From positions 1 through 42,177 of the forward strand of contig CAZQCB010000001.1 in NCBI GenBank assembly GCA_964592265.1: a stretch of DNA of 42,177 bases. Reading direction: 5' to 3'. Shown here in pieces: positions 13,314 to 40,502 of this stretch (the stretch's first letter is position 1; the number at the start of each line of letters is the position of its first letter). The translations under genes and the position numbers were made by a program. The DNA is from an uncultured Candidatus Peribacteria bacterium (lineage in GTDB: Bacteria > Patescibacteriota > Gracilibacteria > Peribacterales > Peribacteraceae). A model generated the notes under the pieces. The model had not been told where the DNA came from, did no database searches, and saw only the letters and a program-made list of their open reading frames with translations.

Positions 13314-13319
13314 TTGGGG

Positions 13320-15175: not shown

Positions 15176-15194
15176 CACCACTTTCACACTCTTG

Positions 15195-15218
15195 TACCAA
15201 TTCACTAGTGAATTGGTA
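15195..15218. repeat. 24-nt perfect palindrome TACCAATTCACTAGTGAATTGGTA, copy 1
   Basis: Read directly from the sequence. An identical 26-mer (with G and T flanks) recurs at 39866-39891. This copy spans the gap between convergent genes and supplies the last codons and the TAG stop of wecB. Confidence 0.95.
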
Positions 15219-16341: not shown

Positions 16342-16358
16342 GACGCAGATTCCGACAC

Positions 16359-16364
16359 ATTATA
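16359..16364 (-). promoter_or_regulatory. consensus -10 TATAAT, 17 nt upstream of wecB ATG
   Basis: The minus strand reads cccTATAATgtgtcggaatctgcgtcATG, inside the 60-bp gap after the upstream stop. Confidence 0.35.
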
Positions 16365-16401
16365 GGGAAAGGAGACGCATGACAGGCAGAAGGAGCACCG
16401 C

Positions 16402-18369: not shown

Positions 18370-20553
18370 ATGGAGGTTGCGCACAGACACGCCCGCACAG
18401 GGGAAAAGCTCCTCTTCCTCGTTGTGGGGATTGGCATCGCTCTTTCGATCTTTCACATCTTCGCTCTCGCATTCCTTCAGGACATCGATGACGCCCCGTA
18501 CCCCATCTTCTTTAGTATGGGGAAGGCAATTCTCAACGGATTCACTCCTTACGAGGATATTTTTGAAACAAAACCTCCTGGGCTGTTCGCGCTTGCAGCA
18601 CTCTCCTTTGCACTCTTCAAGAGCCCTGTCCTTGCGAACATGCTCCAGACCATCCTCCTCTTCCTTCTCCCCACACTTTTCACCCTTTTTGCGTGGAAGA
18701 AGATGCAACATCAAGAGAAGAAGTATCGGTTCCTCGCTCTCGCACTCGCCCTTCTAGGGTCGATTGCACTCCTTCGCTACCTTCTGCCGCACCCCGGCGT
18801 CTGGTCACCGGATTTCTTCAGTGCAGTCTTCGGCATGCTGTATCTCCTCATGATTGCCAATCCAGAGAAATTGGGAAGAGGGAGAATCGCACTCGCTTCG
18901 CTCTTCCTCTTTCTCGCAATCGGCACGAAGGAACCCATATTCCTCTCGACACTCGCAGGGGCAATCGTGCTCCTCCGCACTCCGCGCGCATTCCTCAAGG
19001 GGTGGGTGCTGCCCTTCATCCTGGCAGCACTTGCGGGACTCCTCACGCTCGCGCTCTTCGGATGGCTCCATAGCTATACCTCGATCTACCTCCCCTCCAT
19101 GTTTGGGGGGTACCTCCAACGTCACACGCTCCCGATCTGGCAGAAGGGGCTCGCAATCGATCTCACTTTCGCGAATCTCACATCGCTCTCCCCCGCACTC
19201 CCGATCCTCGTCCTTGGGTCCCTCCTCTTTCTCCTCTTCAAGGACAGGAAAGACACAGTGGAGCGATGGACGGCCGCAACTTCCCTCCTCCTCATCCTTT
19301 CCCTCTTCCTCCTCCTCGCACTCACGGGCCCCCGTCTGATGTTCTATACCTCCCAGTGGGTGCTCGGGGTCCTGCTCCTCTTTCTCCTCCCCTCCCTCTA
19401 CCACGAGTGGAAGAAGCGAAAATTGCGCGCGCTCCTGCTTGCGTTCCTCCTGGCAAGCGGATCGCTCCTCCTCACCTCCTTCCAGTGGTGTCAGCGCACG
19501 TCCCCGATCTTCGCACTCTCGACAAACGTCCTCTCCTTCTTCCCCCACGGGGCCGACCTCCCCTGCCTCGGATCCTTTGGGATGCTCGGCATCATGGTGC
19601 TTCTCACTTTTGCGCTCCTCCCCTGGAAAACACTCTCCCGCGAAGGCCGAACGCTCTCCCTCGCAACCTCCCTCCTCCTCGCCATCATTCTCTTCTCGTA
19701 CCTCGGGATCCTCATCTTCTTTTTTCTCGCAACCCCCCTCCACCGTCTCTCCCCGGTTCCGGGCCTCGTGATCGTCGCAGGGTACATGGCCTACCTCGCC
19801 CGGCGCTGGAATGCTTCGCAGCGCATGGTGCTCCGGGAGGTCCTCCTCCTCTCCCTTGCGCTCTTCCTCGCGATCACTGCGATCTCACTCGGGACGGATT
19901 TCCAGAATCAGCACTACCTTGCCGCAACCCCGTTCTACGCAGCACTCCTCCTACGCTCCTTGCACATCTTCTCGCAGCACCCCCCGCACCCCTACACAAG
20001 ATACGTCCTCCCTGTCTTCGCGCTGCTTGCCGCAGTCACAACCTTCTCCTCCTACCCCTACCCCGCGCTTTCGCTGCAAAAGTACAGAGCGAACATCGCA
20101 GAGACACGACACACTCGCACTCTCGCACAGGAATCAGCCCGCAATCTCGATGCCATCCTCGATCAGTGCAACATCGATCGCTACTACACACTGAAGAATG
20201 TGAGCACAGTGAATCCCTTCGAGGGGTACACGCGTCACACGCCCGCAAACTTCTTCTACTTTGCGGGAATCGAAACGATCAATACCTATCATGATGCCCT
20301 CGCTGTCCGCGAGGCTCGCAATTTCTTTTCCTCTCAGCTCATCGTCACGGGTGATGTGCCGCCTCCCCTCACGCGACAATGGGAAAAGGATATCCAATCC
20401 TTCCTCCAGGAAGAGTTCACAGACGTTCCCTGGCCCTGCGCCGAAGGTCTCCCCACGATCCCCCATCGCGTTCTCCTCTACCGCAAAGTTCCGGGACGCG
20501 TGACGCCGCTCTCGCGGGAGATGCAGGAGTGGGTCGAGCAACACGGGGACTAA
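18370..20553 (+). CDS. GT-C fold membrane glycosyltransferase (PMT/ArnT, GT39/83-like)
   Basis: 727 aa with many hydrophobic spans. The first loop reads DIDDAPYP..ETKPPGLF. The C-terminus is soluble, about 170 aa. Confidence 0.75.
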   Translation: MEVAHRHARTGEKLLFLVVGIGIALSIFHIFALAFLQDIDDAPYPIFFSMGKAILNGFTPYEDIFETKPPGLFALAALSFALFKSPVLANMLQTILLFLLPTLFTLFAWKKMQHQEKKYRFLALALALLGSIALLRYLLPHPGVWSPDFFSAVFGMLYLLMIANPEKLGRGRIALASLFLFLAIGTKEPIFLSTLAGAIVLLRTPRAFLKGWVLPFILAALAGLLTLALFGWLHSYTSIYLPSMFGGYLQRHTLPIWQKGLAIDLTFANLTSLSPALPILVLGSLLFLLFKDRKDTVERWTAATSLLLILSLFLLLALTGPRLMFYTSQWVLGVLLLFLLPSLYHEWKKRKLRALLLAFLLASGSLLLTSFQWCQRTSPIFALSTNVLSFFPHGADLPCLGSFGMLGIMVLLTFALLPWKTLSREGRTLSLATSLLLAIILFSYLGILIFFFLATPLHRLSPVPGLVIVAGYMAYLARRWNASQRMVLREVLLLSLALFLAITAISLGTDFQNQHYLAATPFYAALLLRSLHIFSQHPPHPYTRYVLPVFALLAAVTTFSSYPYPALSLQKYRANIAETRHTRTLAQESARNLDAILDQCNIDRYYTLKNVSTVNPFEGYTRHTPANFFYFAGIETINTYHDALAVREARNFFSSQLIVTGDVPPPLTRQWEKDIQSFLQEEFTDVPWPCAEGLPTIPHRVLLYRKVPGRVTPLSREMQEWVEQHGD

Positions 20554-20705: not shown

Positions 20706-21500
20706 TCATTGATTCTGGAGCTTGGAGTTCCCTTCGGGGGGCTCCTTTGCTATGAGCGGAGAAATTTCTCTGTTCCAGCAGATAAAATTACGAATTTTTT
20801 GGATGTCGAAAATGATCAATCCCTGCGATCGAAGGTCGTTGAGTTCACGCGCAATGCGCCGAGCCGTGGCGAAGATCAAGACCTTTTTTCCAGCCTGCAA
20901 TAATTGAAGAAGCGGATCGTGGAAATCGCTGTCTCCACTCCATAGCACGAAAGTATCTGCGATGTTCCTCTCAGAGGCCAGCAGCATATCTACGCCTATT
21001 TCAACATCGAAATTGCACTTGCGATCTTCAATAAAAAATTCACCCAGCTTGTTCATATCTGCAAAACGCTGGTTGAGATACTCAATGGTCTCGGCGCTGT
21101 ATTTCCGCAGAAGCGACTTGCTGATGAATTGCCGCAGTAGTGAGGTCTCTGTCATGGAAGCTATGCCGCGCGCGTCAATCCATAATTTCATAAGTTTGAC
21201 AGGCTTGGTGTGTACTTTGTAGCCGAACTCCTGCGTCTCATTGATCAGTTGTATGGAAAGCTGATCCCCTTCCAGAGTGCCGCTGTAAAAGTTTACTTCC
21301 CGGATGTTCTCAAATGAATCAAGAAATTGTTTCAGTCTTTTTACGGAAATATGCCATCCGAGTTTCTCGGACCATGGACGCACGTTGGCATAGTCGATGA
21401 ACATGGAAACCTTGCCAATGAGCAGCTGCTCCAGCTCCCGGATGATGTCAGGGTTTTCTTCTGCAAGGCCTTTGATTTTAGGCGTTCCGGCTTTGAACAT
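20706..21500 (-). CDS. NYN/LabA-like domain protein
   Basis: 264 aa from ATG21500. MFIDYANV and VLWSGDSDFHDPL are present. G+C is visibly lower: hand counts give 30-35 percent in two 60-nt lines. Confidence 0.8.
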   Translation of the reverse strand: MFKAGTPKIKGLAEENPDIIRELEQLLIGKVSMFIDYANVRPWSEKLGWHISVKRLKQFLDSFENIREVNFYSGTLEGDQLSIQLINETQEFGYKVHTKPVKLMKLWIDARGIASMTETSLLRQFISKSLLRKYSAETIEYLNQRFADMNKLGEFFIEDRKCNFDVEIGVDMLLASERNIADTFVLWSGDSDFHDPLLQLLQAGKKVLIFATARRIARELNDLRSQGLIIFDIQKIRNFICWNREISPLIAKEPPEGNSKLQNQ

Positions 21501-21502
21501 GA

Positions 21503-22105
21503 CTACAGCGGATATCCAACCACCCACACCCCATAATCCCATACCCCCGCTCTCATGGGATACGACTTCTCCATCGTAAACTTCTCCCGAAGCACTCTCT
21601 CGTAATACTCCATCGACCGAATCCGCCCCCCTGCGTCGTGTGATTGAAGGAAGCGACCAAGGATATTCCACCTTGAGCGCGTCGGACAATCTTCGATGAG
21701 GAGAAATTTGCCGCCGGGTTTAAGGACACGGTGAATTTCGGAGAGTGCGCGCTTCACATCTGCTTCATCTAAGTGGTGGAGGAAACCGATCGTGAGTACG
21801 GAATCGAAATGTGCTTCGGGGAACTGGAGATCCAGGGCATCACCGACCAGGAATTTCTTCCTGGGATATTTCTTCTGCGCACGGGCGACATATTTCTCCC
21901 CCAAATCCACGCCCGTGTAGGCAGAATCGGGAAAGAGCGGGGAGAAGAGACCGGTGCCGCAGGGAAGATCGAGGAGAGATCCGTGCGCTACCCCAAGCTC
22001 GCGGGCAATGACTGCTTTCTCCGATCTAAAATTCGCCTCGATGATCTTGCGGACAAAGTCGAGGATGGGGGGGTAGTCGATGATGCGATGGAGTAGACTT
22101 GGCAT
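21503..22105 (-). CDS. class I SAM-dependent methyltransferase
   Basis: LLDLPCGTG and GGKFLLIED are present. I prefer ATG22105 (200 aa). GTG22153 would overlap the divergent gene. Confidence 0.8.
   Translation of the reverse strand: MPSLLHRIIDYPPILDFVRKIIEANFRSEKAVIARELGVAHGSLLDLPCGTGLFSPLFPDSAYTGVDLGEKYVARAQKKYPRKKFLVGDALDLQFPEAHFDSVLTIGFLHHLDEADVKRALSEIHRVLKPGGKFLLIEDCPTRSRWNILGRFLQSHDAGGRIRSMEYYERVLREKFTMEKSYPMRAGVWDYGVWVVGYPL
22094..22099 (+). promoter_or_regulatory. -10-like box TAGACT, 8 nt upstream of ATG22108
   Basis: The sequence reads TAGACT-tggcatga-ATG. The box lies inside the divergent methyltransferase gene. Confidence 0.35.
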
Positions 22106-22884: not shown

Positions 22885-23841
22885 ATGACTACTGGAACAT
22901 ATACGCCCTCCCTCTCCATCGTCATCCCTGTGTATAACGGGGAGAAGACGATCGGACCACTTGTGCGGGAATTGGAGAAAATACTCTCCCCACACTTCGC
23001 TCTCGAGATCATCTTGGTAAATGATGCGAGCCCTGATGAGAGTCTGCGTGCTTGTCTTTCTGCGCAATCGAGCACGCACTGCCGCGTCCATGTTATCGAT
23101 CTCTCACGGAACTTCGGGGAACACAATGCTGTGATGGCGGGTCTTCACCACAGCACAAGTGACTATGCGGTCATCATGGATGATGATTTTCAGAATCCTC
23201 CGGGTGAGATACAGAAATTGGTCAAGCAAGCGGATTACGAAGGGTACGACGTCGTCTACACACGCTACCCGGAGAAGCACCACGCATGGTGGCGGAATCT
23301 CGGGAGCAAGTTCAATAATTTGATCGCGACGATTATGCTGAGGAAGCCCTACGACCTCTACCTCTCCAGCTTCAAACTCATGAATGCCTTCACCGTGAAG
23401 CAAGTCCTTCGGTACGAAGGCCCCTATCCCTACATCGACGGTCTCATTCTCCGGGCAACACGTCGCATCGGAGTCGTCGAGGTGCAGCACGCCGACAGGA
23501 AGCAGGGCAAATCGAATTACACGCTCGTAAAACTCCTCCGTCTCTGGATGAACATGTTCACGAACTTCTCGATTCTCCCCCTACGCCTTGCAACCCTCCT
23601 CGGCCTCCTCTCTGCATTCATTGCTCTCCTCTTCGGCATCGTGGTCGTCATCGAATGGTTCGAGAATCCGGAACTCCCCGTTGGGTGGGCATCCGTCGCA
23701 TTCCTCCTCGTTTTCTTCTCCGGTGTGCAACTTATGGTCATCGGCATAGTCGGGGAATACGTCGGGCGCATCTTCATGCTGAAGGACGCTACCCCACAGT
23801 TCATCGTCCGCAACGAATACCCTTCGCCCATCCGTCGATGA
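22885..23841 (+). CDS. GT2 polyprenyl-phosphate sugar synthase (GtrB/ArnC-like)
   Basis: 318 aa. LSIVIPVYNGEKTI, ILVNDASPDES and VIMDDDFQNPP are present, along with two C-terminal TM helices. Confidence 0.85.
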   Translation: MTTGTYTPSLSIVIPVYNGEKTIGPLVRELEKILSPHFALEIILVNDASPDESLRACLSAQSSTHCRVHVIDLSRNFGEHNAVMAGLHHSTSDYAVIMDDDFQNPPGEIQKLVKQADYEGYDVVYTRYPEKHHAWWRNLGSKFNNLIATIMLRKPYDLYLSSFKLMNAFTVKQVLRYEGPYPYIDGLILRATRRIGVVEVQHADRKQGKSNYTLVKLLRLWMNMFTNFSILPLRLATLLGLLSAFIALLFGIVVVIEWFENPELPVGWASVAFLLVFFSGVQLMVIGIVGEYVGRIFMLKDATPQFIVRNEYPSPIRR

Positions 23842-25936: not shown

Positions 25937-27694
25937 TTGCCTTCCTTGCCCTCATTGCCTTCCAAATCTTTTCGCATCGGCCTCCTCCTTGCAGGAATCA
26001 CCACAGCGCTCCTCAGTGCAGGAAATATTCCCGTGATGATCGAGAGACCGCAGACTCTCGTCGATGGGATATCCTCTTCAATGGAGGAAAGTTTTTATCT
26101 CTCGCTCATACGGGAAGCCTCTGAAGGGCATGTTTTTTTGGGGAATTCCTCCCTCCGGGAACACCGCTCTGACCGCAGTATCGTCACGTTCTTCCCGCAC
26201 CTCCCCGCGCTCTTCATGCGCATCTTCGCGCTCAGCCTCCCGACGGCACTCTTCCTCACCGACCTCCTCTTCCCCTTCCTGACAACTCTCTTTTTCTTCC
26301 TCGCATGGAGAGGCATCTTTCGGAATGACCTCCTTGCAGGAGGAGTAACGCTGATCGCGATCGGAGCGTGGGAGGGCGGACTCCTCAATGTCGTCAATCC
26401 CAAAATGGTGATGACACTCGCGGCAGCGTACTCCGCACTCTACTTTGGTACGCAGCACCCATCAAAGCTCCACTATGCCTTGCGAGGGGGCTTACTCGGC
26501 ATCACGCTCTATACCTATCCCCATTACTTCCTCCTCTTCGGGTCATTTGAAGTCGCGGATTTTCTCCGGAGACTTGTTAAGAGGGCTCGGCTTCAGATCC
26601 GGGATTTTCAAGAGCTCATCATCCTCTCCTTGAGTACCTTCATCATTTCCCTCCCCTACCTCTTCCTCTCGGGGCTTGGGGGAAAAAGTGCTGCATCACT
26701 CGACCTCTGGTATCGGCAGGTGATTCCGAGTCGCTTGCCCGCTCACCCCACGCTACAGATTGCTCTTCTCCTCACCATTGCACTCTGTTTTTTTATTTTT
26801 AAGAAGAAGAGCGCTGAAGAAGTGAAGAACCGTATTCCACCGGAAGATCAGATCCTTACTTCGCTTTTCGCGGGCCTTCTCGTTCTCAATCAGTCACTTC
26901 TGCACGGCCTCGATATCATGTTCGGACTGCACTACAGGCTACCGCTGAAGATGCTCATCTGGATCGCGGTCGTCTTTGCAGTCTCGCGCATCATCCGAAA
27001 AGCATCGCTCTATCGTACCCCCGTCATCGTTCTTGCCGCATACAGTCTCTTCTCCATCATAACACTCAGTGGTCCTCTTCTCTCTCCGGAGAGAAATCGC
27101 ATTGCGGAGGCCTTCACCGCGTCCGATCTCCCAAAGGTTATCATGTGGCTCAATACGCAAGAAGAATCTGTGGTCCTCGCTCCGCATGAACTTTCTGAGA
27201 TCATCCCCGTCTACACTCCGCACTACGTCGCATGGAATGGCTATGCGAATTACCAGAGTGTGACGGATGCGGAACTTGCAAGACGCTATGTCCTGCAGGA
27301 GCTCGTGGAGCCGCAATCAGAAGTGGAGCGGGACCGGAGTTACCCGCAGGTCTTTAGCGTGTATGCGGGAAATCTCGCAGCGCGGGAACGGACCTGGTGC
27401 CAGGTGAAATCATTCTTCCGGAAGAGCAAAGCGGAGTGTTCTGTTTCCACTCCTTCAAAGATACGGAATCAGGAAGCTCTCAAGAACCTGGAGGAAAATC
27501 TCGCGCACCTCTCCCCCGAACTCTTCCTCACGCTCCTCCGTGAATTTCATGTCGATGTCATCGTCGCGGAGAATCCGCTTCCTCCAATCATCACACGGGA
27601 GTGTCCGGAAGGACAGTCGATCGGTGCATACACGATCTACACCTGCCGCGAGAGCCTCTCCATGATGCGACCCATTCGCTTCTCCCAGGTGTGA
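25937..27694 (+). CDS. polytopic membrane protein, paralog A (GT-C-like candidate)
   Basis: 585 aa from TTG25937. An N-terminal TM segment is followed by the acidic loop SSMEESFYLSLIREASEGH. The protein has many hydrophobic spans. A C-terminal soluble part resembles paralogs B and C (TDAELARRYVLQELV). Confidence 0.65.
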   Translation: MPSLPSLPSKSFRIGLLLAGITTALLSAGNIPVMIERPQTLVDGISSSMEESFYLSLIREASEGHVFLGNSSLREHRSDRSIVTFFPHLPALFMRIFALSLPTALFLTDLLFPFLTTLFFFLAWRGIFRNDLLAGGVTLIAIGAWEGGLLNVVNPKMVMTLAAAYSALYFGTQHPSKLHYALRGGLLGITLYTYPHYFLLFGSFEVADFLRRLVKRARLQIRDFQELIILSLSTFIISLPYLFLSGLGGKSAASLDLWYRQVIPSRLPAHPTLQIALLLTIALCFFIFKKKSAEEVKNRIPPEDQILTSLFAGLLVLNQSLLHGLDIMFGLHYRLPLKMLIWIAVVFAVSRIIRKASLYRTPVIVLAAYSLFSIITLSGPLLSPERNRIAEAFTASDLPKVIMWLNTQEESVVLAPHELSEIIPVYTPHYVAWNGYANYQSVTDAELARRYVLQELVEPQSEVERDRSYPQVFSVYAGNLAARERTWCQVKSFFRKSKAECSVSTPSKIRNQEALKNLEENLAHLSPELFLTLLREFHVDVIVAENPLPPIITRECPEGQSIGAYTIYTCRESLSMMRPIRFSQV

Positions 27695-28782
27695 TTCTGA
27701 ACATCTGTCCACGCACGGGAAGCCTTCTTTGCCGCTTCTTCGCTGTGATCGAGTGCGCGTGCAATCGCATCGGCAAGGCCGCGTGGATCGCCGGGGGTAC
27801 AGAAGTACACGGTGTCTTCGCTTAAGACATCTCGGAGTGGCGGAAGATCCGCAGCGACGATCGGCTTCCGCGCTGCCATGTACTCGAAGATTTTTAAGGG
27901 GGAGGTATCGCGCTGAAAGAATGGGTGACTGGAGGCAGGTGCGGGGTAGACGAGGACGCTGCAGACCGAGAGAAAATCCGGAATGCCGCTATGGAGGAGG
28001 AAGCCGAAATACGTGACGCCCGGGGTCTTCCGGATGTTCTGGAGCAGGGCTGCATCTTTGGGCTCCGGCCCCGCAATAATGAGCTGCACCCTCCTCCCTT
28101 GACGCCGGAGGATGGCAAATGCTTCCAGGAGCTCCTCAATGCCCTTCGAAAGCCCCATGGAGGAGAGCTGTCCAGCATAGCCGATCGCAGGATCAAGAGA
28201 TGGACTGTATTTCGTGATGCTCACGGATCTCTGCACTCCGGAGAAAGCGGAAAGATCGAAGGCATCGGACTCGACGATGGTTTTCTTTGGATCGCTGCCC
28301 CAGGAGAGGAGCACGGCGCGCATCGGCGTCGTGAGTGAGATGACGAGGGCACACCGATTGCAGAGGGCGGCAAAACGCCGTTGTCCCCTTCCTGGGAGGG
28401 TATGAAGCTCGAGCACAACGGGGATCTTTGTTTTAAGTAATGTCGAGAGCAATGCCGGGGAGCGCGTGTACGTTAATGCAAATTTCTGCGCACGCAGTTT
28501 TTTGCGTAACGCAAGGCGGAACTGCAGATTGAGAAGGAAGAGCTGGAGAAACTTCGGGAGAGGCCAGTCGATGGGGTCGAAAGTCCCGAGGCGTGTGAGC
28601 TTCACGCGCCTGTCTGCGTTGTGAAACGTCCAGTAGTCATTCTGGATCGGATTTCTCCGATAGGGCGCCAAAATCTCGACCTCGTGCCCAAGGTTCACGA
28701 GTGCATCACAGACACGCGCCACCTGGTGCCCGTGAGCGCGTTCGCTCGGGAGTCGCACGTTCGTACAGTAGGCAATGCGCAT
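27637..28782 (-). CDS. GT4 family glycosyltransferase
   Basis: 381 aa from ATG28782 (MRIAYCTNVRLPSERAHGHQV). The C-terminal region reads LKIFEYMAARKPIVAADLPPLRDVL. The 3' end overlaps the convergent gene by 58 nt. Confidence 0.8.
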   Translation of the reverse strand: MRIAYCTNVRLPSERAHGHQVARVCDALVNLGHEVEILAPYRRNPIQNDYWTFHNADRRVKLTRLGTFDPIDWPLPKFLQLFLLNLQFRLALRKKLRAQKFALTYTRSPALLSTLLKTKIPVVLELHTLPGRGQRRFAALCNRCALVISLTTPMRAVLLSWGSDPKKTIVESDAFDLSAFSGVQRSVSITKYSPSLDPAIGYAGQLSSMGLSKGIEELLEAFAILRRQGRRVQLIIAGPEPKDAALLQNIRKTPGVTYFGFLLHSGIPDFLSVCSVLVYPAPASSHPFFQRDTSPLKIFEYMAARKPIVAADLPPLRDVLSEDTVYFCTPGDPRGLADAIARALDHSEEAAKKASRAWTDVQNHTWEKRMGRIMERLSRQV

Positions 28783-28790
28783 GGAAGAGT

Positions 28791-28796
28791 ATCTTA
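28791..28796 (-). promoter_or_regulatory. -10-like box TAAGAT, 8 nt upstream of ATG28782
   Basis: The minus strand reads TAAGAT-actcttcc-ATG. The box overlaps the upstream stop codon. Confidence 0.25.
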
Positions 28797-30404
28797 ACGA
28801 ATACGGTAGAGACGCCAATCTTCCCCATTCGCGATCTGCGTGAAAAGATCTTCATCCACCTTCCAGGTTGGCCGCTCGCGCTCATTCCAGAGGAGGAAAT
28901 CAACACCATACTCCCGCAGCGCTGCTACAGGATTGGCGAGGAGCGCCGCGCAGACCTCCCCAAATTCCCGTTCCCGCTCCGGAAGGAAAGATTGTGCACG
29001 CGTATGCGTCGCTTCCCGCGCAATCCAGAAGATATCGGGGCCCGCAGAGTTGAATACTTCCGTAAGGCAGTAGCGCTCCGCAAATTCCCTGTTGCTGACG
29101 AGGAGATGACGCACGTAGGGCGTGAAGACCGTATCGTCATCCGTCCAGTTCGTGACCATCTGTGCTGATCGGTAATCGGTGAGGATAGTTTGCCTCTTCC
29201 CATCACTCAGGATTTTTAAAGCTGGAGCGAGGTGTTGGAGATCGAGGTGCTCGCGCGGGGCGAAGGGGAGAGCCCATGCTCCGCGATAGTCCCAGAAACC
29301 TGCCAGGAGGAAGATCGCTGCAATTGCCACAATGCCGCGGGAGGGCCAAGTTCCTCTGGCATGTGCCAAGGCCCATGCAGCCACGCTCACTGCTGCAAGA
29401 CACACAAAGGGGTAGTAGTGACTGGAGAAGGTGAGGAGAATGCCATGGAGAAGGTTCTGGTGCATGACAGTCCATGCAGCGAACACCAGTGCAGAGGGAA
29501 AGATTGCAGTCTTCAGGACATCCTCCTTTCGACGCACGGAGCGTAGGAGGAACATCGTCAAGAGCACGAGGAGAGAGAGGAGAATGCTTCGCATGGGGGA
29601 TTCGATCATGTGTGTTGGAACGACCTGGTTTCTTAGGGATACTTCCGCAGAGAAGGGATAAGCGCGTGAGGCGAGGACGAGTTTCAGGAGGAAAGGCATG
29701 CTGAAGAGGAATGTGAGTACCCCTACGAGGAGGAGCACGTGTGTACGTTCCCGTTTCCAGGTGGAAGTCCGGAGGAGGAGGAGATGGAGGAGAAGGAACC
29801 ATCCCCCAACTGCCCAAACGTAGGAAAAATCCCAGAAGTAGACTGCGGGGAGACTTCCCGTGAGAAGTACCGTGAGGAGGATGCGAGAGGAGCGAGGGTG
29901 CTGCCACGTTCGTAGAAGGGAGAAAATTGTTCCGAGTGCAAGCGGGAGCGCGAGCGACATGTAGATGGGCCTCTGTAAAGGGCTAAGAAAAGTAATGGTG
30001 TAGGTAAGACCGGAGGCAAGCGAGAGCCCCTTCCCCACTCCGGAAGCTCTGAGGGTCCCTGCGATAAGAGGGATCATGAGAGGCGCAATGAGTACGGTGA
30101 GGATCACCGAGATCTGCGGCCCATGGAGGCCAGTCCAGGAGAAAAGCGTGCCACCGAGGAGCTCCAGAAGCGCCGGAGCGACTCCCTGCGCAGGAGGACC
30201 TGTAATCCCATTCTGAAATTCCCGAAAATGCCCCTGGGCTGCGGCATCGAGCCTCCCCATGTAGAACCCATCGTCGTTCGTTCGAAACGGAACGAGTCCC
30301 CGGTACTCTGGACGGAAGGTATAGAGGAAGTACGGGAGAGCAATGAGGAGAGCCATCCCGAGCATCGAGTAGACCTCCACTCGTCGGAAATTCTTCTCTG
30401 TCAT
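28794..30404 (-). CDS. polytopic membrane protein, paralog B (GT-C-like candidate)
   Basis: 536 aa from ATG30404 (ATGA overlap with paralog C). The acidic loop reads FRTNDDGFYMGRLDAAAQGH. Strings shared with paralog C: YFWDFSYVWAVGG, ESPMRSILLSL and REFAERYCLTEVF. Confidence 0.7.
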   Translation of the reverse strand: MTEKNFRRVEVYSMLGMALLIALPYFLYTFRPEYRGLVPFRTNDDGFYMGRLDAAAQGHFREFQNGITGPPAQGVAPALLELLGGTLFSWTGLHGPQISVILTVLIAPLMIPLIAGTLRASGVGKGLSLASGLTYTITFLSPLQRPIYMSLALPLALGTIFSLLRTWQHPRSSRILLTVLLTGSLPAVYFWDFSYVWAVGGWFLLLHLLLLRTSTWKRERTHVLLLVGVLTFLFSMPFLLKLVLASRAYPFSAEVSLRNQVVPTHMIESPMRSILLSLLVLLTMFLLRSVRRKEDVLKTAIFPSALVFAAWTVMHQNLLHGILLTFSSHYYPFVCLAAVSVAAWALAHARGTWPSRGIVAIAAIFLLAGFWDYRGAWALPFAPREHLDLQHLAPALKILSDGKRQTILTDYRSAQMVTNWTDDDTVFTPYVRHLLVSNREFAERYCLTEVFNSAGPDIFWIAREATHTRAQSFLPEREREFGEVCAALLANPVAALREYGVDFLLWNERERPTWKVDEDLFTQIANGEDWRLYRIR

Positions 30405-32059
30405 GGAGTAAAGGCGGGAGAGAGACTCAAGAGGAGCCATGTGTTTGAGGCTTCGAGAACAGTGAGGGGTAAGGAGTATCGGGTCATACTCCACTGGGGT
30501 TTCCCCTCCTGATTCCACAGGATGTGCGTCACTCCGTACTTTCGGAGCCAGGGGAGCGGATCACTCCGCACCCTCTCGCATGCTTCCCCGACGAGCACTC
30601 TCTCGCGCTCACGCATCTTAAGGGAATCGAGCACGGGAGTGTACTCGATGTAGAGCGAGCGATACGGATTGGGTGGGCTTCCTAAGAAGAGCTCTGAGAG
30701 ACAGAAGCGCTCCGCGAGCTCCGCATCAGAGAGGAGAAGGTGACGGGCGTGTGTCGTGTAGATAATCCCCTCATCTGTGAAGGAGGTGAGCACGCGACCG
30801 GTGTGCGCATCCGTGAGTACGACATCGCGCGTGCCATTCTCACGGAGAAGTTTGATGGGACGACGCAAGTACTGATCTTGGAAATCCTCTTCCTTGGGCA
30901 CGAAGAATCTGTACCCAGGGAGGTAATCATATGCCGCACCGGCAAGGAAGAGCACTGCTATGCCTGCAACACCCACTCGCGGCAAGAGGGGAACGCGATG
31001 GAGGAGGACATAGGCTCCCGCAACGAGGGAACCGAGGACGAGATGCGGGTAGAAATGGGAACTGAACATGAGAAGCGTCCCATGCACGATGTTCTGGTGC
31101 ATGGCGAGGAAGACTCCAAGGAGGAGGGAGAGGGTTGCAAGGTAACGCCAGTTCTGTCGCTCCTGCTTCCAGAGAGAGAGGAAGAGCCCCACTTGGAGCG
31201 CAAGGAGGATGCTCCGCATAGGGGACTCGACGGAGCGTGTGAAGAGAAACCCCGCACGGCGCGCAGTTTCCAAGTACAGCGGGTGCTGCATGAGTTCCCA
31301 AGTGTGGAGGAAGAAGGGAAGAGCAACGAAAAAAGTAACGAGGAGGACAACGAGGAACAGAGAGTGTGAAGGTGTGAAGGTGTGAAGGTCGTTCTTCAGG
31401 GGCCGCGTGATGTAGTGAAGAAGTACGGCGCTTCCCGCGACCGCCCATACGTAAGAGAAGCTCCAGAAGTAGATGTAGGGGAGCATGCCAAGGAGGAGTC
31501 CCGTGAGGAGTGCGAGAGGGAGAGACGGATGTTTCCAGAAGTGCAGGAATGCAATGAGGGCGGCAATCGCCGGAACAAAGCTCCACCCCGGATGCATGAC
31601 GCGCGAGACGACAGGGAAGAGGAGGAAGAAGTAGAGACTGGTCATGCCGAGTGCCCAAGGAGGAGAGAACTCCAATGTGCGGAAGAGGAAGTGAAAGAGG
31701 AGGAAGAGGAGAAACACAAAGAGGGGCGTAAGGATGACCGAGAGCGTGGGAGCGGGAATACCCAACCACCCAAGGAACACACCCAGGGCAATTTCGAGAC
31801 CGGCGATCTGCCCACCCTCAATCCCGGAACCGACGGGGGTGATCCCGTTGTCTGCTTCCGAAGGAAACCCCGAGAGAGCACGCTCCAGACGGCTATAGTA
31901 ATTGCCGAAGTCCTTGTCTCGAATGATGGTGAGTCCCTCGAAGGAGGGGTGGAATGTATGCAGGACGTATGGAACTGCGGCACCCAGTGCAAAAAGCAGG
32001 GCAACCCCTAGAACGGGGAAGAGGAAAGGGGTTTGGAGGCGGGGAGCAGAGGAAATCAC
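30401..32059 (-). CDS. polytopic membrane protein, paralog C (GT-C-like candidate)
   Basis: 552 aa from GTG32059. The acidic loop reads IRDKDFGNYYSRLERALSG. YFWSFSYVWAVAG, ESPMRSILLAL and AELAERFCLSELF are present. Confidence 0.7.
   Translation of the reverse strand: MISSAPRLQTPFLFPVLGVALLFALGAAVPYVLHTFHPSFEGLTIIRDKDFGNYYSRLERALSGFPSEADNGITPVGSGIEGGQIAGLEIALGVFLGWLGIPAPTLSVILTPLFVFLLFLLFHFLFRTLEFSPPWALGMTSLYFFLLFPVVSRVMHPGWSFVPAIAALIAFLHFWKHPSLPLALLTGLLLGMLPYIYFWSFSYVWAVAGSAVLLHYITRPLKNDLHTFTPSHSLFLVVLLVTFFVALPFFLHTWELMQHPLYLETARRAGFLFTRSVESPMRSILLALQVGLFLSLWKQERQNWRYLATLSLLLGVFLAMHQNIVHGTLLMFSSHFYPHLVLGSLVAGAYVLLHRVPLLPRVGVAGIAVLFLAGAAYDYLPGYRFFVPKEEDFQDQYLRRPIKLLRENGTRDVVLTDAHTGRVLTSFTDEGIIYTTHARHLLLSDAELAERFCLSELFLGSPPNPYRSLYIEYTPVLDSLKMRERERVLVGEACERVRSDPLPWLRKYGVTHILWNQEGKPQWSMTRYSLPLTVLEASNTWLLLSLSPAFTP
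31364..31387. repeat. octanucleotide tandem repeat GTGTGAAG x3
   Basis: Three perfect units read directly, plus a partial GT. They lie inside paralog C and encode DLHTFTPSH. Confidence 0.9.
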
Positions 32060-32122: not shown

Positions 32123-33142
32123 ATGTCTCCCCTCTCCGTCGGGGTCGTGGGACTTGGCTACTGGGGTCCCAACCTTCTCCGGAATTTCGCAGCGCTCGAT
32201 GACTGCACCGTGAAGTACGGATGTGATTTGAAGAAGGAGAATCTCGAAAAAATGCGGAAGCACTATCCCGCTGTGCGCTATACCCTTTCTTTCAAGGATC
32301 TCCTGCAGGATGCGGAGCTGACGGCAATTGCCATTGCCACCCCAACAGAAACGCACTTCGATCTTGCGAAGGCGGCGCTGGAATCCGGGAAACACGTCCT
32401 CCTCGAGAAGCCGATGACACGCACCTTAAAAGAAGCGACAGAACTCGTGGAACTCGCAAAGCAGAAAAAACTGCAGCTCCTCGTCGATCACACCTTCGTC
32501 TACACCGGTGCCGTTTCGAAGATTCGGGAACTTGTGAAGAGCGGAGAGATCGGTGATCTCCATTACTTTGATTCCACGCGTATCAACTTAGGTCTCATCC
32601 AGAAGGACGTGAATGTCCTCTGGGACCTCGCGATCCATGACCTCTCGATTCTGAATGTCCTCCATGATCTCTCGAACGTCGCATCGCTCTATGCGCACGG
32701 GAGTACGCATTTCACGAAGCAGCCGGAGATTGCCCATCTGCATCTCACCTTCCAGGACGGCATAGAGGCACATATCCATGTGTCCTGGCTCTCCCCCGTG
32801 AAGATTCGCAAGACCATCGTCGGTGGGTCGAAGAAGATGATTCTCTACGACGACACGGAGCCTTCGGAGAAAATCCGCATCTACGACAAGGGTGTGCATT
32901 TCCAGGAACTCGTCGAAGAGGGAAAACCCGACCCCTTCTTCCCCGTCTACCGGAGTGGCGACGTCCTCATCCCCGCAGTCCCGAATCCGGAAGCGATGAG
33001 CATCGAAGCAAAACACTTCCTCGCCTGCATCGAAGGACACGAACAACCGAGAGTATCCGGCAAAGACGGTGCGCGCATCATCGAGCTTCTGGAGCGTGCC
33101 AATCAGTCGATGGAAGAGAAGAGGCTCCTCACACTTTCGTGA
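32123..33142 (+). CDS. Gfo/Idh/MocA family oxidoreductase (sugar-nucleotide dehydrogenase type)
   Basis: 339 aa. VGVVGLGYWG and LLEKPMT are present. Confidence 0.9.
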   Translation: MSPLSVGVVGLGYWGPNLLRNFAALDDCTVKYGCDLKKENLEKMRKHYPAVRYTLSFKDLLQDAELTAIAIATPTETHFDLAKAALESGKHVLLEKPMTRTLKEATELVELAKQKKLQLLVDHTFVYTGAVSKIRELVKSGEIGDLHYFDSTRINLGLIQKDVNVLWDLAIHDLSILNVLHDLSNVASLYAHGSTHFTKQPEIAHLHLTFQDGIEAHIHVSWLSPVKIRKTIVGGSKKMILYDDTEPSEKIRIYDKGVHFQELVEEGKPDPFFPVYRSGDVLIPAVPNPEAMSIEAKHFLACIEGHEQPRVSGKDGARIIELLERANQSMEEKRLLTLS

Positions 33143-37095: not shown

Positions 37096-39330
37096 TTACA
37101 ACCCCTTCGCAATGAATTCATCCATCTTCGCAATCATGCCTTCGAGGCTGTGACACTCGGCAACGATGCGGTAGAGCTCGTCGGCATTTGTGCCCTGGAA
37201 ATGCTGAATGAACGCAGCAACGGCTTCAGGGGTATCTTCGTCCGGAGCGGAGAGTAAACCAATTGCCTCAGCGTTCTTTTTCGTCGTCACGGGGTAGCAT
37301 CCACAGGTCATTGCCTCAAGCATCGTCTTATCAATGGTCTCACTGGCCATATTGAGAATGAACCGGTGCTGCGGATAGATCTCCTTCAACTGCTCCATGG
37401 GCACCGTGCCGTGGAAGGTGACGCGGGATTCAAGACCCAAGCTCGAAACGAGCTGCCGAAGCTCTGCGACATAATCCGGTTCCGCTGCGATACCGTAGAT
37501 CACCATCGTATATATCTCCGGAAGAAGTTTGAGCGCTCTCAAACTGATTTCCACACGCTTGCTTCGGGATAATCGGTGCACGACGAGAAGTTCATGTGGA
37601 TTTCCTGTGACACTCGGTCGCTTCTTCCAGAAATCGAGGTCAATGCCATGACCAGTTACAATCTTCTTCGGTGATCCCTCATACTGAGGCAAGCTCTGTG
37701 CAGTCGCACAGAAAAAGCGTTTCCCAAAGAGGCCGAAGAGGAAGACTCCGAGCTGCATCTTGTAGTGCGTGTACCAGAGGTAGACCGGAATGCCTTTGAG
37801 GAGCCACCACCAAAACCCAAGCGTATACCACACGGGAGACATATGGATGAAGACGCGGTCGTATTGGAGGGAGAAAATATATTTGTAGAAGGACAGAATT
37901 TGCCGGATCTTGCCGAATCTGCGTTCCTTTCCCATGGAGAAAACCTGTCGCACGTCACTCCGTGACGTGTGCTGCATGTCGCGGAGCGACATGCGACTAT
38001 TCTCCAGGCAGAGCACCTGAACGGTATATCCCTTCCTCTCAAAAGCCCTTACCCAGAGCTCGACGAACGCATCCTGTGTGTGCATCTTTTGGGTGATGAA
38101 GAGCAATGAAAGTTTCTTCGGAGAGGAAAGATTTTTCAGGAACTCTGCGTATTTCTGCACAGCTTCACCGGGAGCGAAACGGGAGAGGACTTCTTTTCTT
38201 GCACGCTCCCCCATTGCCCTCGTGGAAGAAAAATCACCAAGGAGCACCTGCAATTTCTCTGAAAGATTTTTTGCTGAACCATCCGTGAACTTCACAAGCT
38301 CACCATCCTCCCCAAACTGTGGCATGATCCCCACTCTCGTCGTGACCACGGGCATCCCGAGCGCCATCGCTTCGATGGCGACACGGGGATTCCCTTCACT
38401 TCGGGAATTCACAAGGAAAATTTTCCCTCGCTGCATTTCCCGGTACACGTCACGTTGCTCCGGAAGCCATCCTGCGAATGTCACACGATCATCGATCCCG
38501 AGAGATCTTGCCTTGTCCTCCAGACGTGCTCGTTCTGGCCCATCACCGATGAGAAGGAGTGAAACCCCCTTCAAAGATGAAATAGCCTGGAGTACCTCAA
38601 AAAGCCCTTTATTGGCCGTAAGACGCGCGCAAGCTACAACGTCGTACTCCTCCCTTATGGAGGGGCCTGGCATGAGCGCAGAGGCATCCAGGTAGAGGGA
38701 AGGCACAATCTCGACTTTCGCTTGCGGGATTCCCCACTGCATCAGTTTCTCCTCTACTTCATTATTCACGGTTCGCACCTTGGCGGCAGCCCGCACCGTT
38801 GCTTTGAAAAAAAATGGCCAGTGATACATCCACCGTCCAATGCGTTCCTGTAAAGACGCAGCCGTGGGATATCCCACGATGTGATGTACCTCAACTCCAT
38901 AGGGAGTGCGAGTCACACGATGCAACCACCGCGCACCAATCCCGTTATAAAACGGCGGGTAGTCGTGAACTGTCATCACCCAGTCCGGCATCTTCTTGCT
39001 TTTCAAAAGTTCTTTCCCTTTCTTGAGAATGAAGAAAGGTTGGTACCACAGCCTGTGAGGAGAAGAGTGGAAGAAAACATTCGGCAAATCCGAAATCCGA
39101 AATCCGAAATCCGAAACAAATTCGAAATTCGAATTTCGTGCTTCGTGCTTGTTTCGAATTTCGTGCGGAGCTTGTCCTGAGCCTTGTCGAAGGGTGCTTC
39201 GGATTTCTACTCTTGGGCAGATAATTTCGATTCTCTCAAAATGTTTCGAAAGTTCTTCCAAGGTGTAATAGAAAGCACCCTTCTTGCCGGAAGAGACTGA
39301 TCTGTCGCCGGAAATCATCAGAAGATTCAT
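37096..39330 (-). CDS. two-module GT4 glycosyltransferase fusion
   Basis: 744 aa. Module 1 contains FLVNSRSEGNPRVAIEAMALGMPVVTT. Module 2 contains ILNMASETIDKTMLEAMTCGCYPVTT. ATGA overlap with the upstream gene. Confidence 0.8.
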   Translation of the reverse strand: MNLLMISGDRSVSSGKKGAFYYTLEELSKHFERIEIICPRVEIRSTLRQGSGQAPHEIRNKHEARNSNFEFVSDFGFRISDLPNVFFHSSPHRLWYQPFFILKKGKELLKSKKMPDWVMTVHDYPPFYNGIGARWLHRVTRTPYGVEVHHIVGYPTAASLQERIGRWMYHWPFFFKATVRAAAKVRTVNNEVEEKLMQWGIPQAKVEIVPSLYLDASALMPGPSIREEYDVVACARLTANKGLFEVLQAISSLKGVSLLLIGDGPERARLEDKARSLGIDDRVTFAGWLPEQRDVYREMQRGKIFLVNSRSEGNPRVAIEAMALGMPVVTTRVGIMPQFGEDGELVKFTDGSAKNLSEKLQVLLGDFSSTRAMGERARKEVLSRFAPGEAVQKYAEFLKNLSSPKKLSLLFITQKMHTQDAFVELWVRAFERKGYTVQVLCLENSRMSLRDMQHTSRSDVRQVFSMGKERRFGKIRQILSFYKYIFSLQYDRVFIHMSPVWYTLGFWWWLLKGIPVYLWYTHYKMQLGVFLFGLFGKRFFCATAQSLPQYEGSPKKIVTGHGIDLDFWKKRPSVTGNPHELLVVHRLSRSKRVEISLRALKLLPEIYTMVIYGIAAEPDYVAELRQLVSSLGLESRVTFHGTVPMEQLKEIYPQHRFILNMASETIDKTMLEAMTCGCYPVTTKKNAEAIGLLSAPDEDTPEAVAAFIQHFQGTNADELYRIVAECHSLEGMIAKMDEFIAKGL
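39086..39207. repeat. heptamer-periodic nested-palindrome element (AAATCCG x4 etc.), in-frame in CDS
   Basis: Read directly. There are four perfect heptamers at 39086-39113 and a 16-nt palindrome at 39123-39138. A 12/13 stem pairs 39105-39117 with 39151-39163. TTCGGATTTC at 39198-39207 pairs with the heptamer units. Confidence 0.9.
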
Positions 39331-40502
39331 CGTGTGCGCGAGAGAGTGAGAAATTCTTCCGCAACATCGTTCCAGGTTCGCTTTGGAGGAGGCGAAGCAG
39401 AGGCTGTAGCATACATATCGTATTCTTTCTCTACTTCTTCAATTGCAGCTACGATCTCTTGAACAGTCAAAAGATCACGGAGAATCATTCCTTGAGAAAG
39501 GGCGCTGCTTAAGCCCGTCTCCTTCGTAAGGAGCACAGGGAGACCCGCTGCACGCGCTTCAAGCGCTACATTAGGGCTCATTTCGGTAACGGAAGGGAGA
39601 ACCAGGAGATCGTGCTCCGCGAACACTTCCTGTTTTTCTTCACCGTGCGCCGGGGGGTAGAATGTCACAATGTTCTGCAACTGAAGTTTTGCCACAAGAA
39701 AACGTAAGGAGCTCTCCACAGGTCCCTCACCGACAAAGGTCAGCGTTGCCCTTCCATGGTCATTCTTCAGAGCGACAACAAACGTGAGCAAATTTTTGAA
39801 TCCCACGAACCTCCCCATGAAAAGAAGGCGAAATGGATCGTGCTTCTTATGTTCTTCAGCCTTACGTACCAATTCACTAGTGAATTGGTATATTTGTTCT
39901 GGTAGGGCATTCTCAATCACAGAATGTTTCGGGAGATCCTTGTAATGCTTTTCATAGAGCTTTTCTTGAAACCGTGTAGAAAAGACGATGTGATCGAACG
40001 TACGAAGCATCAATCGCGAAACGAAAAACGAAAAACGAAAAACGAGCGAACGTTCTTCATACCATTCTCTCAAGCTCTTCATTCCCCCTCTATCCGTATA
40101 CCGCTCCCAGAAGAAATCCCCGCCAAGCCGAAGCAGCAGCTTCGGCTTGCCCCGAGCGAAGCCGAGGGGCGAGCACATGCGCCAGAGCATAATCGGCACG
40201 CCACAACTTACCGAGGAGAAAGCAACAATGACATCTGCATCGACCGCATGTTGTTTGAGCGCCTTTGCATACCTCCACCATCGAAGTAGCGGCCCACCCA
40301 ACTTTGCCACATGAATCACGGGCCAATCTTCTTTGGAAATTGGAAATTGGAATTTGGGATTTGGGATTTGGTGCTTCGGCACATACGTCACCACCTTCAC
40401 CTCATTCCCCTTCTTCGTAAATTCCTCCGCAAGTGCCTGCACATAAGTCGCGGGACCGCCAATATCAGGTGGATAGATGCCTGTAGCGAGGACGATCTTC
40501 AT
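39327..40502 (-). CDS. GT4 family glycosyltransferase
   Basis: 391 aa. MKIVLATGIYPPDIGGPATY and LVLPSVTEMSPNVALEARAAGLPVLLT are present. Confidence 0.85.
   Translation of the reverse strand: MKIVLATGIYPPDIGGPATYVQALAEEFTKKGNEVKVVTYVPKHQIPNPKFQFPISKEDWPVIHVAKLGGPLLRWWRYAKALKQHAVDADVIVAFSSVSCGVPIMLWRMCSPLGFARGKPKLLLRLGGDFFWERYTDRGGMKSLREWYEERSLVFRFSFFVSRLMLRTFDHIVFSTRFQEKLYEKHYKDLPKHSVIENALPEQIYQFTSELVRKAEEHKKHDPFRLLFMGRFVGFKNLLTFVVALKNDHGRATLTFVGEGPVESSLRFLVAKLQLQNIVTFYPPAHGEEKQEVFAEHDLLVLPSVTEMSPNVALEARAAGLPVLLTKETGLSSALSQGMILRDLLTVQEIVAAIEEVEKEYDMYATASASPPPKRTWNDVAEEFLTLSRTR
39867..39890. repeat. 24-nt perfect palindrome TACCAATTCACTAGTGAATTGGTA, copy 2
   Basis: Identical to 15195-15218. 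Here it is read in-frame as YQFTSELV inside the GT4 gene. Confidence 0.95.
40017..40049. repeat. heptamer tandem repeat CGAAAAA x3 with degenerate flanks
   Basis: The sequence reads CGAAA CGAAAAA CGAAAAA CGAAAAA CGAGCGA. It encodes RSLVFRFSFFVS on the minus strand. Confidence 0.9.
40122..40151. repeat. GC-rich hairpin (11/12-bp stem, 6-nt loop) inside CDS
   Basis: The sequence reads GCCAAGCCGAAG-cagcag-CTTCGGCTTGCC. Confidence 0.8.
40336..40377. repeat. heptamer array GAAATTG x2, GAATTTG, GGATTTG x2, GTGCTTC
   Basis: Read directly. It follows the same ordered unit series as 39124-39151 and ends in GGTGCTTCGG, as at 39195-39202. It encodes KHQIPNPKFQFPIS. Confidence 0.9.

Follow-up and report, generated by a model that had tools for sequence, protein, structure and literature searches.

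The 42,177-nucleotide stretch of contig CAZQCB010000001.1 analyzed here (the window), from an uncultured Candidatus Peribacteria bacterium (GenBank assembly GCA_964592265.1), is one large surface-glycan cluster. Between positions 25937 and 32059, it carries three paralogous genes for polytopic membrane proteins, here named A, B, and C, which an earlier note on this DNA had proposed as an unassigned family resembling the GT-C glycosyltransferases. In the following, we describe these genes, the sequence family and predicted fold of their products, and their genomic surroundings, all of which make it probable that the three proteins transfer lipid-linked sugars on the outer face of the membrane.

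Three paralogous membrane-protein genes

The genes, their shared neighbor, and the acidic motifs of the first loop were located as follows (strand in brackets; aa, amino acids).

25937-27694 (plus): paralogue A, 585 aa from a TTG start at 25937; the distant paralogue, with the same architecture
28794-30404 (minus): paralogue B, 536 aa; translationally coupled to C
30401-32059 (minus): paralogue C, 552 aa; membrane protein with a modeled GT-C fold, about 11 transmembrane helices, and a C-terminal domain
27637-28818 (minus): GT4 glycosyltransferase (Pfam Glyco_trans_1_4, Glycos_transf_1, Glyco_transf_4)
26081-26113 (plus): first-loop motif of A, M49-E50-E51-S-F-Y54-L-S-L-I-R59; codons read, E50 aligned with D50 of C
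30252-30284 (minus): first-loop motif of B, R41-T-N-D44-D-G-F-Y48-M-G-R51; aligned to D50/Y54 of C
31889-31921 (minus): first-loop motif of C, R47-D-K-D50-F-G-N-Y54-Y-S-R57; identified by D/E and Y conservation and helix position

The earlier note had described three open reading frames (ORFs) here, with B and C in tandem and coupled through an ATGA overlap. All three were recovered at these coordinates, and the overlap was read directly in the DNA (B ATG at 30404-30402, C TGA at 30403-30401). The B stop codon (TAA, 28796-28794) is followed 11 nt further by the probable ATG of the GT4 gene at 28782, whose product opens with 'MRIAYCTN'. Because of the ATGA overlap and the 11-nt spacing between B and GT4, the genes C, B, and GT4 were read as one operon. 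Gene A converges on the GT4 gene, and their 3' ends overlap by 58 nt (27637-27694). An extra C-terminal tail of A (…SLSMMRPIRFSQV) was common only to A and its closest homologue, P0038.

Public gene calls for A begin at Met49 (537 aa, NCBI) or Met34 (552 aa, ENA assembly), and both remove the first transmembrane helix (TM1), which is kept in homologues; these shorter starts were rejected for that reason. The sole in-frame starts further upstream are TTG codons at 25937, 25946, and 25955, at least 6 nt past the stop of the DegT gene, and an upstream TTG is preferred because TM1 is conserved in homologues. As judged from these alignments, the deposited annotation of A is probably N-terminally truncated. 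The open frame of B extends beyond its ATG as far as 30518, and the Met14 start of the ENA gene call for B was rejected since the N-terminus aligns with that of the B orthologue P0036.

B and C were 35% identical over 519 aa (E 2e-80), in keeping with the clear duplication claimed for them. The identity between A and B was 23% over 291 aa (E 6e-10), and A matched C with an E-value of 3e-5. Profile comparison with hhalign, using nine sequences for the A family and 33 for the B/C family, aligned the two families over 496 columns, essentially end to end, with a probability of 99.7% and an E-value of 1.1e-26. The pairwise E-values and the full-length hhalign alignment are far beyond chance and confirm that A, B, and C are true paralogues, with A the more distant. 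The peptides that had been quoted for them (YFWSFSYVWAVAG and YFWDFSYVWAVGG, ESPMRSILL, AERFCLSELF and AERYCLTEVF, and DAELARRYVLQELV) were all found, as were the motifs MEESFY..IREA, NDDGFY..RLDAA, and DKDFGNYY..RLERA in the ORFs. The first-loop motifs aligned without gaps, pairing E50/Y54 of A with D44/Y48 of B and D50/Y54 of C.

Sequence family, acidic motif, and predicted fold

A Pfam scan (E ≤ 1) of A, B, and C gave no match, an NCBIfam scan gave nothing credible (sub-cut-off noise only, E 0.026-0.47), and PDB sequences compared with the family profile gave chance matches only (superoxide dismutase, E > 0.5). When 39 diverse members, 14-34% identical to C, were tested with Pfam, sub-threshold matches appeared to PMT_2 in two of them (E 6e-4) and to DUF6798 in two. 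Cluster look-ups of ten diverse members returned no source name other than 'hypothetical protein', and nothing relevant was found in the literature on GT-C enzymes in Patescibacteria or Peribacteria. Membership in named families was also examined directly. For STT3/PglB/AglB (GT66), there was no Pfam or PDB-sequence match and no WWDYG motif in the family alignment; for the PMT/ArnT-like families (GT39/GT83), A, B, and C showed no PMT or PMT_2 match above the gathering threshold; for Wzy, O-antigen ligase (Wzy_C), and SEDS proteins, there was no Pfam match and no Wzy, WaaL, RodA, or FtsW-type structure among the listed Foldseek matches; and for YfhO/GtrC-type families, no YfhO or GtrII-type match was seen in Pfam or NCBIfam. 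Against Pfam, NCBIfam, and PDB-sequence searches, the description of the family as unassigned holds.

A word-indexed search returned 36 close relatives of C and nine of A. When 1.84 billion cluster representatives were searched exhaustively with a hidden Markov model (HMM) profile combining A, B, and C, 2,041 proteins were returned at E ≤ 1e-3, of which 1,321 reached E ≤ 1e-10 and 506 reached E ≤ 1e-30, a family size of about 2,000 clusters at 50% identity; the best 150 matches listed were mostly full-length, at about 520-600 aa. The 12 loci in species-representative genomes comprised 11 'Candidatus Peribacteria' metagenome-assembled genomes (MAGs) and one 'Candidatus Uhrbacteria' MAG, and one partial match carries a Parcubacteria label. 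Motifs specific to the family are HQNxxHG, FSSH[FY]YP, and SDAExAER.

Conservation was counted in an alignment of 175 diverse homologues, with numbering as in C.

Position 50: D in 167, E in 8 (100% acidic)
Position 51: E in 108, D in 14
Position 54: Y in 175
Position 57: R in 125
Position 153: R in 158 (90%)
Position 268: R in 166 (95%)
Position 322: Q in 155 (89%)
Position 335: H in 142 (81%), Y in 32
Position 428: T in 164
Position 447: E in 146, D in 18 (94% E/D)
Position 451: R in 172 (98%)

The loop-1 signature of the family is D-E-x-x-Y-x-x-R. The acid at position 50, Y54, R268, Q322, H326, H335, T428, E447, and R451 are present in all three paralogues. R57 and R153 are missing from A, and within the A family E51 and Y54 are invariant. 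Judged by this residue pattern, none of the three looks like a dead copy. The earlier note had named a poorly conserved acidic motif as grounds for giving up its proposal; the acid and the Tyr at +4 were each present in 175/175 homologues.

An AlphaFold2 model of C, built on a 33-sequence alignment, had a mean predicted local distance difference test (pLDDT) score of 92.7 and a predicted template modeling (pTM) score of 0.91. When this model was searched with Foldseek against 350,542 PDB chains, ranks 1-25 were all GT-C enzymes (STT3/PglB, AftA, DPY19, ArnT, ALG9/ALG12, Emb (EmbC), PimE, and Pmt1/2), with a probability of about 1.0 for nearly all, E-values down to 2.5e-6, and template modeling (TM) scores of 0.45-0.52. 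The lowest E-values, 2.5e-6 to 1e-5, were to STT3 and PglB. The best overall structural match, to a protein of similar size, was AftA (PDB 8if8; TMq 0.52, TMt 0.48), and the match to Pmt spanned only 273 columns. Transporters appeared only from rank 26, with a probability of at most 0.13 and TM-scores of about 0.1, and the search returned no Wzy, O-antigen ligase (WaaL), or SEDS structure. The readings of C as a Wzy protein or ligase, or as a transporter, were rejected on this result. The fold check had been set beforehand as a possible refutation of the GT-C proposal, and it returned GT-C enzymes only, with no Wzy or ligase and no credible transporter. For the C model, the GT-C assignment appears robust at the level of fold. 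A and B are predicted to have the same fold because they are linked to C by transitive full-length homology (hhalign), and on the model all three would belong to the GT-C_A structural class.

In the C model, helix 49-62 is the first to follow TM1 (13-35) and has D50 at its N-terminal tip; a second loop-1 helix spans residues 87-99. These two helices would correspond to the juxtamembrane (JM) arrangement, JM1/JM2, of GT-C_A enzymes. In PimE, the catalytic base D58 is located at the tip of JM1, where it is hydrogen-bonded by Y62, and has been equated with the catalytic Asp of ALG6, ArnT, and PglB (PMC12041525). The i/i+4 spacing of D50 and Y54 in C is that of PimE D58/Y62, and D50 may be equivalent, residue for residue, to the catalytic Asp of the solved GT-C enzymes. 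That the acidic motif sits where GT-C enzymes carry their catalytic Asp/Glu, as the earlier note had suggested, is supported by its place on the first helix after TM1 in the model and by the PimE-like spacing, the match being a predicted one at residue level.

By definition, GT-C enzymes are polytopic, with about 8-13 transmembrane helices and a cytoplasmic N-terminus (PMC5836110). A, B, and C are all polytopic, and the C model has 11 hydrophobic helices of 15-29 residues in addition to the two loop-1 helices. In the 11-helix topology of C with the N-terminus inside (N-in), the inward loops are short and basic (RPLK, KQERQN, HRVP). The conserved polar residues (D50, Y54, R57, E89, R153, H156, Y197, R268, E278, S279, H321-Q-N323, H326, S334, and H335) are all in outward loops or outer helix ends, with none in cytoplasmic loops, and the C-terminal alpha/beta domain of 172 residues is extracytoplasmic. 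As modeled, this arrangement fits catalysis at the outer interface of the membrane. The family thus shows the helix count and N-in topology, the fold likeness, and the acidic loop-1 motif (DXD, DXE, DDX, or DEX type) by which GT-C membership is recognized; the fold itself is marked by a conserved module of TM1-7 and a pair of juxtamembrane helices in loop 1. Because the predicted fold is that of GT-C but the sequence searches for named families found no match, A, B, and C are placed in a new sequence family, new as measured against Pfam, NCBIfam, and PDB sequences, inside the known GT-C superfamily and a known type of system. The earlier note had called this the most plausible undescribed system of the window; the part that stands is the new sequence family, and the part that does not is a new kind of system, since superfamily and system type are well known.

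The glycan cluster and its counterparts in relatives

Other features of the cluster that bear on the paralogues are listed below.

11454-13796 (minus): ATP-binding cassette (ABC) exporter of HepA/MsbA/PglK type; fused membrane and ATPase domains (Pfam ABC_membrane and ABC_tran)
17633-18364 (minus): soluble GT2 of 243 aa, resembling dolichol-phosphate mannose synthase (DPMS), AglJ, and PpgS; second candidate polyprenyl-phosphate-sugar synthase
18370-20553 (plus): polytopic protein of 727 aa; possible further GT-C, not paralogous to A, B, and C
22885-23841 (plus): ArnC/GtrB-type GT2 with two C-terminal transmembrane helices; candidate polyprenyl-phosphate donor synthase
32123-33142 (plus): GFO/IDH/MocA oxidoreductase (Pfam; WbpB-like by family), divergent from C
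Sugar enzymes across the window: five DegT aminotransferases, several NAD-dependent epimerases/dehydratases, a UDP-GlcNAc 2-epimerase, and the GFO/IDH/MocA oxidoreductase
Modifying enzymes across the window: hexapeptide, GNAT, and FemAB-type acyltransferases, several methyltransferases, and an ATP-grasp protein
Glycosyltransferases across the window (about ten): at least five GT4 genes, three GT2 genes, and a TIGR04372 glycosyltransferase

The GT2 at 22885-23841 matched ArnC structures over its full length (E 5.6e-44) and GtrB (5ekp) with an E-value of 2.2e-38; its NCBIfam matches were ArnC and PgfS, and its transmembrane segments span residues 238-256 and 271-289. For the 243-aa GT2, the best PDB sequence match was the Pyrococcus dolichol-phosphate mannose synthase 5mlz (E 3.3e-26, residues 14-242), and its NCBIfam matches were AglJ, the best, PpgS, and ArnC, all under the equivalog cut-offs. 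PpgS belongs to a mycobacterial GT2-plus-GT-C pair. The two lipid-phosphate-sugar synthases that had been claimed for the locus are hence real by homology. The ABC exporter matched HepA (1e-137), MsbA (5e-116), and PglK (5e-57) in NCBIfam, all under the equivalog cut-offs, and its true start is probably downstream of 13796. By its sequence, it is a candidate flippase or exporter for a lipid-linked glycan. No Wzx or Wzy was found in the 42-kb window.

The 727-aa protein had been counted in the earlier note as a fourth candidate extracytoplasmic transferase. It had no Pfam or NCBIfam match and only eight homologues, which share an invariant loop-1 segment, D63..E66-T-K-P-P70. As a fourth paralogue it was rejected, since hhalign against the A/B/C family found no relationship. 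Its AlphaFold2 model had a pLDDT of 74, and the best Foldseek match was STT3A (E 0.01, probability 0.99, TM-score 0.26), followed by ALG3 and DPY19; on this model it is possibly another orphan GT-C. Of the four candidates, A, B, and C are therefore supported, and this protein, which is unrelated to them in sequence, is supported only weakly. Downstream of it, at 20706-21689 (minus), a protein with an NYN domain (a predicted RNase-type domain) lies between the 727-aa gene and two methyltransferase genes. Elsewhere in the cluster, a 744-aa protein at 37096-39330 (minus) contains two GT4 modules, with two Glycos_transf_1 stretches and Glyco_transf_4-type N-domain matches in both halves, and a further GT4 gene at 39327-40502 overlaps it by 4 nt.

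Gene context in relatives was analyzed by tblastn of the window proteins against 12 genome loci and three contig loci, together with precomputed Pfam annotation. In almost all of these loci, C and B are each represented by a single orthologue. The C orthologues are 46-57% identical to C and 31-33% to B, and the B orthologues are 36-42% identical to B and 28-32% to C; the duplication therefore predates these lineages. The usual order places a DegT, an acetyltransferase, and a GFO/IDH/MocA gene divergent from C, B, GT4, and a 2-epimerase gene; the order C-B-GT4 is kept in about eight of the 12 genome loci, and the GFO/IDH/MocA gene is found upstream of C on the opposite strand in eight related loci. 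A orthologues occur together with a fourth, more distant paralogue in L008 and L010/L015 (about 1764-16653), where all four paralogues (the distant 624-aa copy and the C-, B-, and A-types) lie within 15 kb. These Peribacteria loci also carry two GT2 genes, one ArnC-like and one small, and a GtrA-like gene that stands alone. A faint match to an SLH domain was seen in a protein at the edge of this type of locus.

Small GT2 genes (220-240 aa) are present within 10 kb in most related loci, and several are tied to the family more directly. In P0031 (794 aa), a GT2 (PF00535; AglJ as the best NCBIfam match, 1.2e-26) is fused to the N-terminal side of a C-type protein, an arrangement compatible with a cytoplasmic N-terminus of C-type proteins. 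The distant member P0171 is preceded directly, with a 4-nt overlap, by a DPMS-like GT2 of 236 aa (5mlz, E 2.2e-25). In L001 (1322-2611), the orthologue of the 243-aa GT2 (63.6% identical) forms a fusion of 429 aa with a GtrA_DPMS_TM membrane domain, a domain that the GT2 of the window does not have. A PglK/MsbA/HepA-like ABC exporter is also present in a related locus. A GT2, a flippase in some cases, and a GT-C make up the known layout of extracytoplasmic glycosylation systems (PMC11127046; PMC5836110), and the fusions and the overlap in relatives have this genetic signature. Overall, the gene context points to lipid-linked sugar donors.

Two members of the family stood apart. The P0053 cluster (795 aa; also P0193 and P0194) has a 258-aa N-terminal extension without a Pfam match, unlike the GT2 fusion in P0031; this extension may represent a fused partner domain that has diverged, or an artefact of gene calling. 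P0066, at 8001-9704 of L018, is in a mobile-element-like setting with a tyrosine integrase, a PemK toxin, a TraG/TrwB-like ATPase, and DUF932, and without a glycan cluster.

Proposed function and its alternatives

On the model of C and the surrounding genes, A, B, and C are probably GT-C extracytoplasmic polyprenyl-phosphate-sugar transferases that act on a surface glycan or protein. The activity, donor, acceptor, and quaternary state that we infer for them would be as follows. The nucleotide-sugar enzymes of the cluster would make unusual amino and acetamido sugars, the cytoplasmic GT2s (22885-23841 and 17633-18364) would load a sugar onto polyprenyl phosphate, and the lipid-linked sugar would be flipped across the membrane. 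Each paralogue would then transfer the sugar on the outer face to an acceptor, either a glycan built by GT4 and GT2 enzymes or a surface protein. In C, the invariant acid at position 50 (D50) would be the catalytic base, positioned by Y54; the donor phosphate would be held by conserved basic residues that face outward (R153, R268, H326, and H335); and the C-terminal domain, with its conserved T428, E447, and R451, may help to bind the acceptor. Because the B-C pair is ancient, conserved, and co-translated, B and C may catalyze distinct consecutive steps or form a heterodimer. Pmt1-Pmt2 and EmbA-EmbB are heterodimers of paralogues.

Several points weigh against this proposal. The helix count is derived from the model and from hydropathy, and the equivalence of D50 rests on secondary-structure position and motif spacing. 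The DPMS-like GT2 (243 aa) is 7.5 kb from the paralogues, and its NCBIfam scores are under the equivalog cut-offs. Within the 42-kb window, with intergenic gaps and unassigned ORFs checked, there was no GtrA-type flippase and no phosphoglycosyltransferase of the WecA, PglC, or WbaP type, so that the donor pathway is incomplete in the window; possibly a GT2 starts the glycan on polyprenyl monophosphate, or the genes missing here lie outside the window. Finally, an en-bloc donor is kept in play because the best fold-search E-values were to oligosaccharyltransferases (OSTs), namely STT3 and PglB.

These E-values are one of the arguments for the alternative that the paralogues are OSTs or ligases, analogous to PglB, AglB, and STT3, which move a whole lipid-linked oligosaccharide en bloc to an S-layer (surface layer) protein, pilin, other surface protein, or the wall, once the GT4 and GT2 enzymes of the locus have assembled it and the MsbA/PglK-like ABC exporter has flipped it. 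Such an exporter is indeed present in the window and in one related locus, the C-terminal domain is conserved and extracytoplasmic as in OSTs, and the best NCBIfam match of the small GT2 is AglJ, which starts the archaeal N-glycan on dolichol phosphate; the lack of a WecA- or PglC-type initiating enzyme in the window is in line with this. Peribacteria moreover encode S-layer and large extracellular proteins (PMC4736985). We nevertheless regard en-bloc transfer as unlikely, for the family has neither a WWDYG-type motif nor a Pfam match, including to STT3, and its TM-scores to OSTs (0.45-0.49) are no better than those to AftA (0.52) or ArnT (0.45), both of them enzymes with monosaccharide donors. 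It would also be unusual for OSTs to occur as three or four paralogues per locus, and the coupling or fusion of distant members to a single GT2 is a hallmark of GT2-plus-GT-C monosaccharide systems (PMC11127046).

A more specific version, which we consider a decidedly long shot, is that Peribacteria and related members of the Candidate Phyla Radiation (CPR) run an archaeal-style pathway, in which an AglJ/DPMS-like GT2 would start the glycan on polyprenyl monophosphate, GT4 and GT2 enzymes would extend it, the MsbA/PglK-like exporter would flip it, and a co-translated B-C heterodimer would pass it on en bloc to the wall or to surface proteins such as those of the S-layer. The missing phosphoglycosyltransferase would then be explained, because a GT2 would start the glycan on polyprenyl monophosphate. 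If true, the family would represent a new oligosaccharyltransferase class in bacteria.

It is very improbable that the paralogues are glycan polymerases or chain extenders that carry out repeated transfers on the outside, as Wzy or Emb/Aft enzymes do. AftA, a mycobacterial arabinosyltransferase, gave the best TM-score, Emb proteins were matched as well, no Wzy-type gene was found in the window, and the several paralogues per locus recall the mycobacterial Aft/Emb sets. However, Foldseek returned none of the Wzy, WaaL, or SEDS-type enzymes, and such extenders would share fold and donor class with the single-sugar transferases proposed above and overlap with them in mechanism; sequence does not separate processive from single transfers. 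That A, B, and C are non-enzymes (transporters, structural or scaffold proteins) with a GT-C-like bundle, as PIGU is in the glycosylphosphatidylinositol (GPI) transamidase (PMC12041525), is extremely unlikely, given that the loop-1 acid and Tyr are 100% conserved, that the outward basic and polar set is kept at 14-34% identity, that transporter folds were matched at a probability of at most 0.13, and that the genes are consistently found in glycan clusters and coupled to GT2 genes.

As probable extracytoplasmic polyprenyl-phosphate-sugar transferases, the paralogues can be compared with several characterized systems. With AftA (8if8), PimE (9dm5), and EmbA/B/C, mycobacterial GT-C enzymes whose donors are polyprenyl-phosphate sugars, they share a polytopic N-terminal domain and the occurrence of several paralogues per organism, and with PimE also the loop-1 acid at the JM1 tip with a Tyr at +4 (D58/Y62). 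AftA and Emb have a soluble extracytoplasmic C-terminal domain, as does the C model. The family differs from these enzymes in having no detectable sequence similarity to them, in its CPR lineage, and in its own motifs, and its donor sugars are probably amino or acetamido sugars, unlike those of AftA, PimE, and Emb.

In the GtrB/GtrA/GtrC, CsbB/GtcA/YfhO, and ArnC/ArnT systems, a GT2 charges polyprenyl phosphate and a GT-C transfers the sugar outside the membrane (PMC11127046; PMC5836110). The ArnC/GtrB-type GT2 of the window resembles these systems, as do the GT2-GtrA fusions, the stand-alone GtrA-like gene, and the GT2s overlapping or fused to family members in relatives. In contrast, the window has no GtrA-type flippase gene, it has three paralogous GT-Cs instead of one, with B and C as a co-translated pair, and the family matches no YfhO, PMT_2, or GtrII-type Pfam model above threshold.

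Common to the family and STT3/PglB/AglB (GT66) are an acidic residue in the first external loop, an extracytoplasmic C-terminal domain, and a PglK/MsbA-like exporter nearby, whereas the family is about 150 aa shorter, has about 11 predicted transmembrane helices, and shows no WWDYG and no sequence match. Solved OSTs are generally described with 13 transmembrane helices. PMT/ArnT enzymes (GT39/GT83) have a DE-type loop-1 motif similar to the family consensus D-E-x-x-Y, and ArnT and Pmt1/2 were among the fold matches; the family differs in matching PMT_2 below threshold only and in having no MIR domain. The Pmt1-Pmt2 heterodimer offers a model for B and C.

The family probably reveals no new type of mechanism, which appears conventional; it is a large, unnamed, and cleanly delineated family from a bacterial radiation that is poorly understood. 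Detecting GT-C enzymes by sequence is difficult, and new families tend to be founded singly, as was GT136 in 2024 on a comparable orphan GT-C (PMC11127046). Recognizing the family would allow several large 'hypothetical' genes per genome to be annotated and a profile HMM or CAZy family to be built. D50, Y54, R268, H335, and R451 are concrete targets for mutagenesis, and C is a compact, confidently modeled GT-C for structural work. Peribacteria are ultrasmall and probably symbiotic, and their envelope is believed to serve in attaching to other cells (PMC4736985); the family described here is central to conserved surface-glycan clusters in these bacteria.

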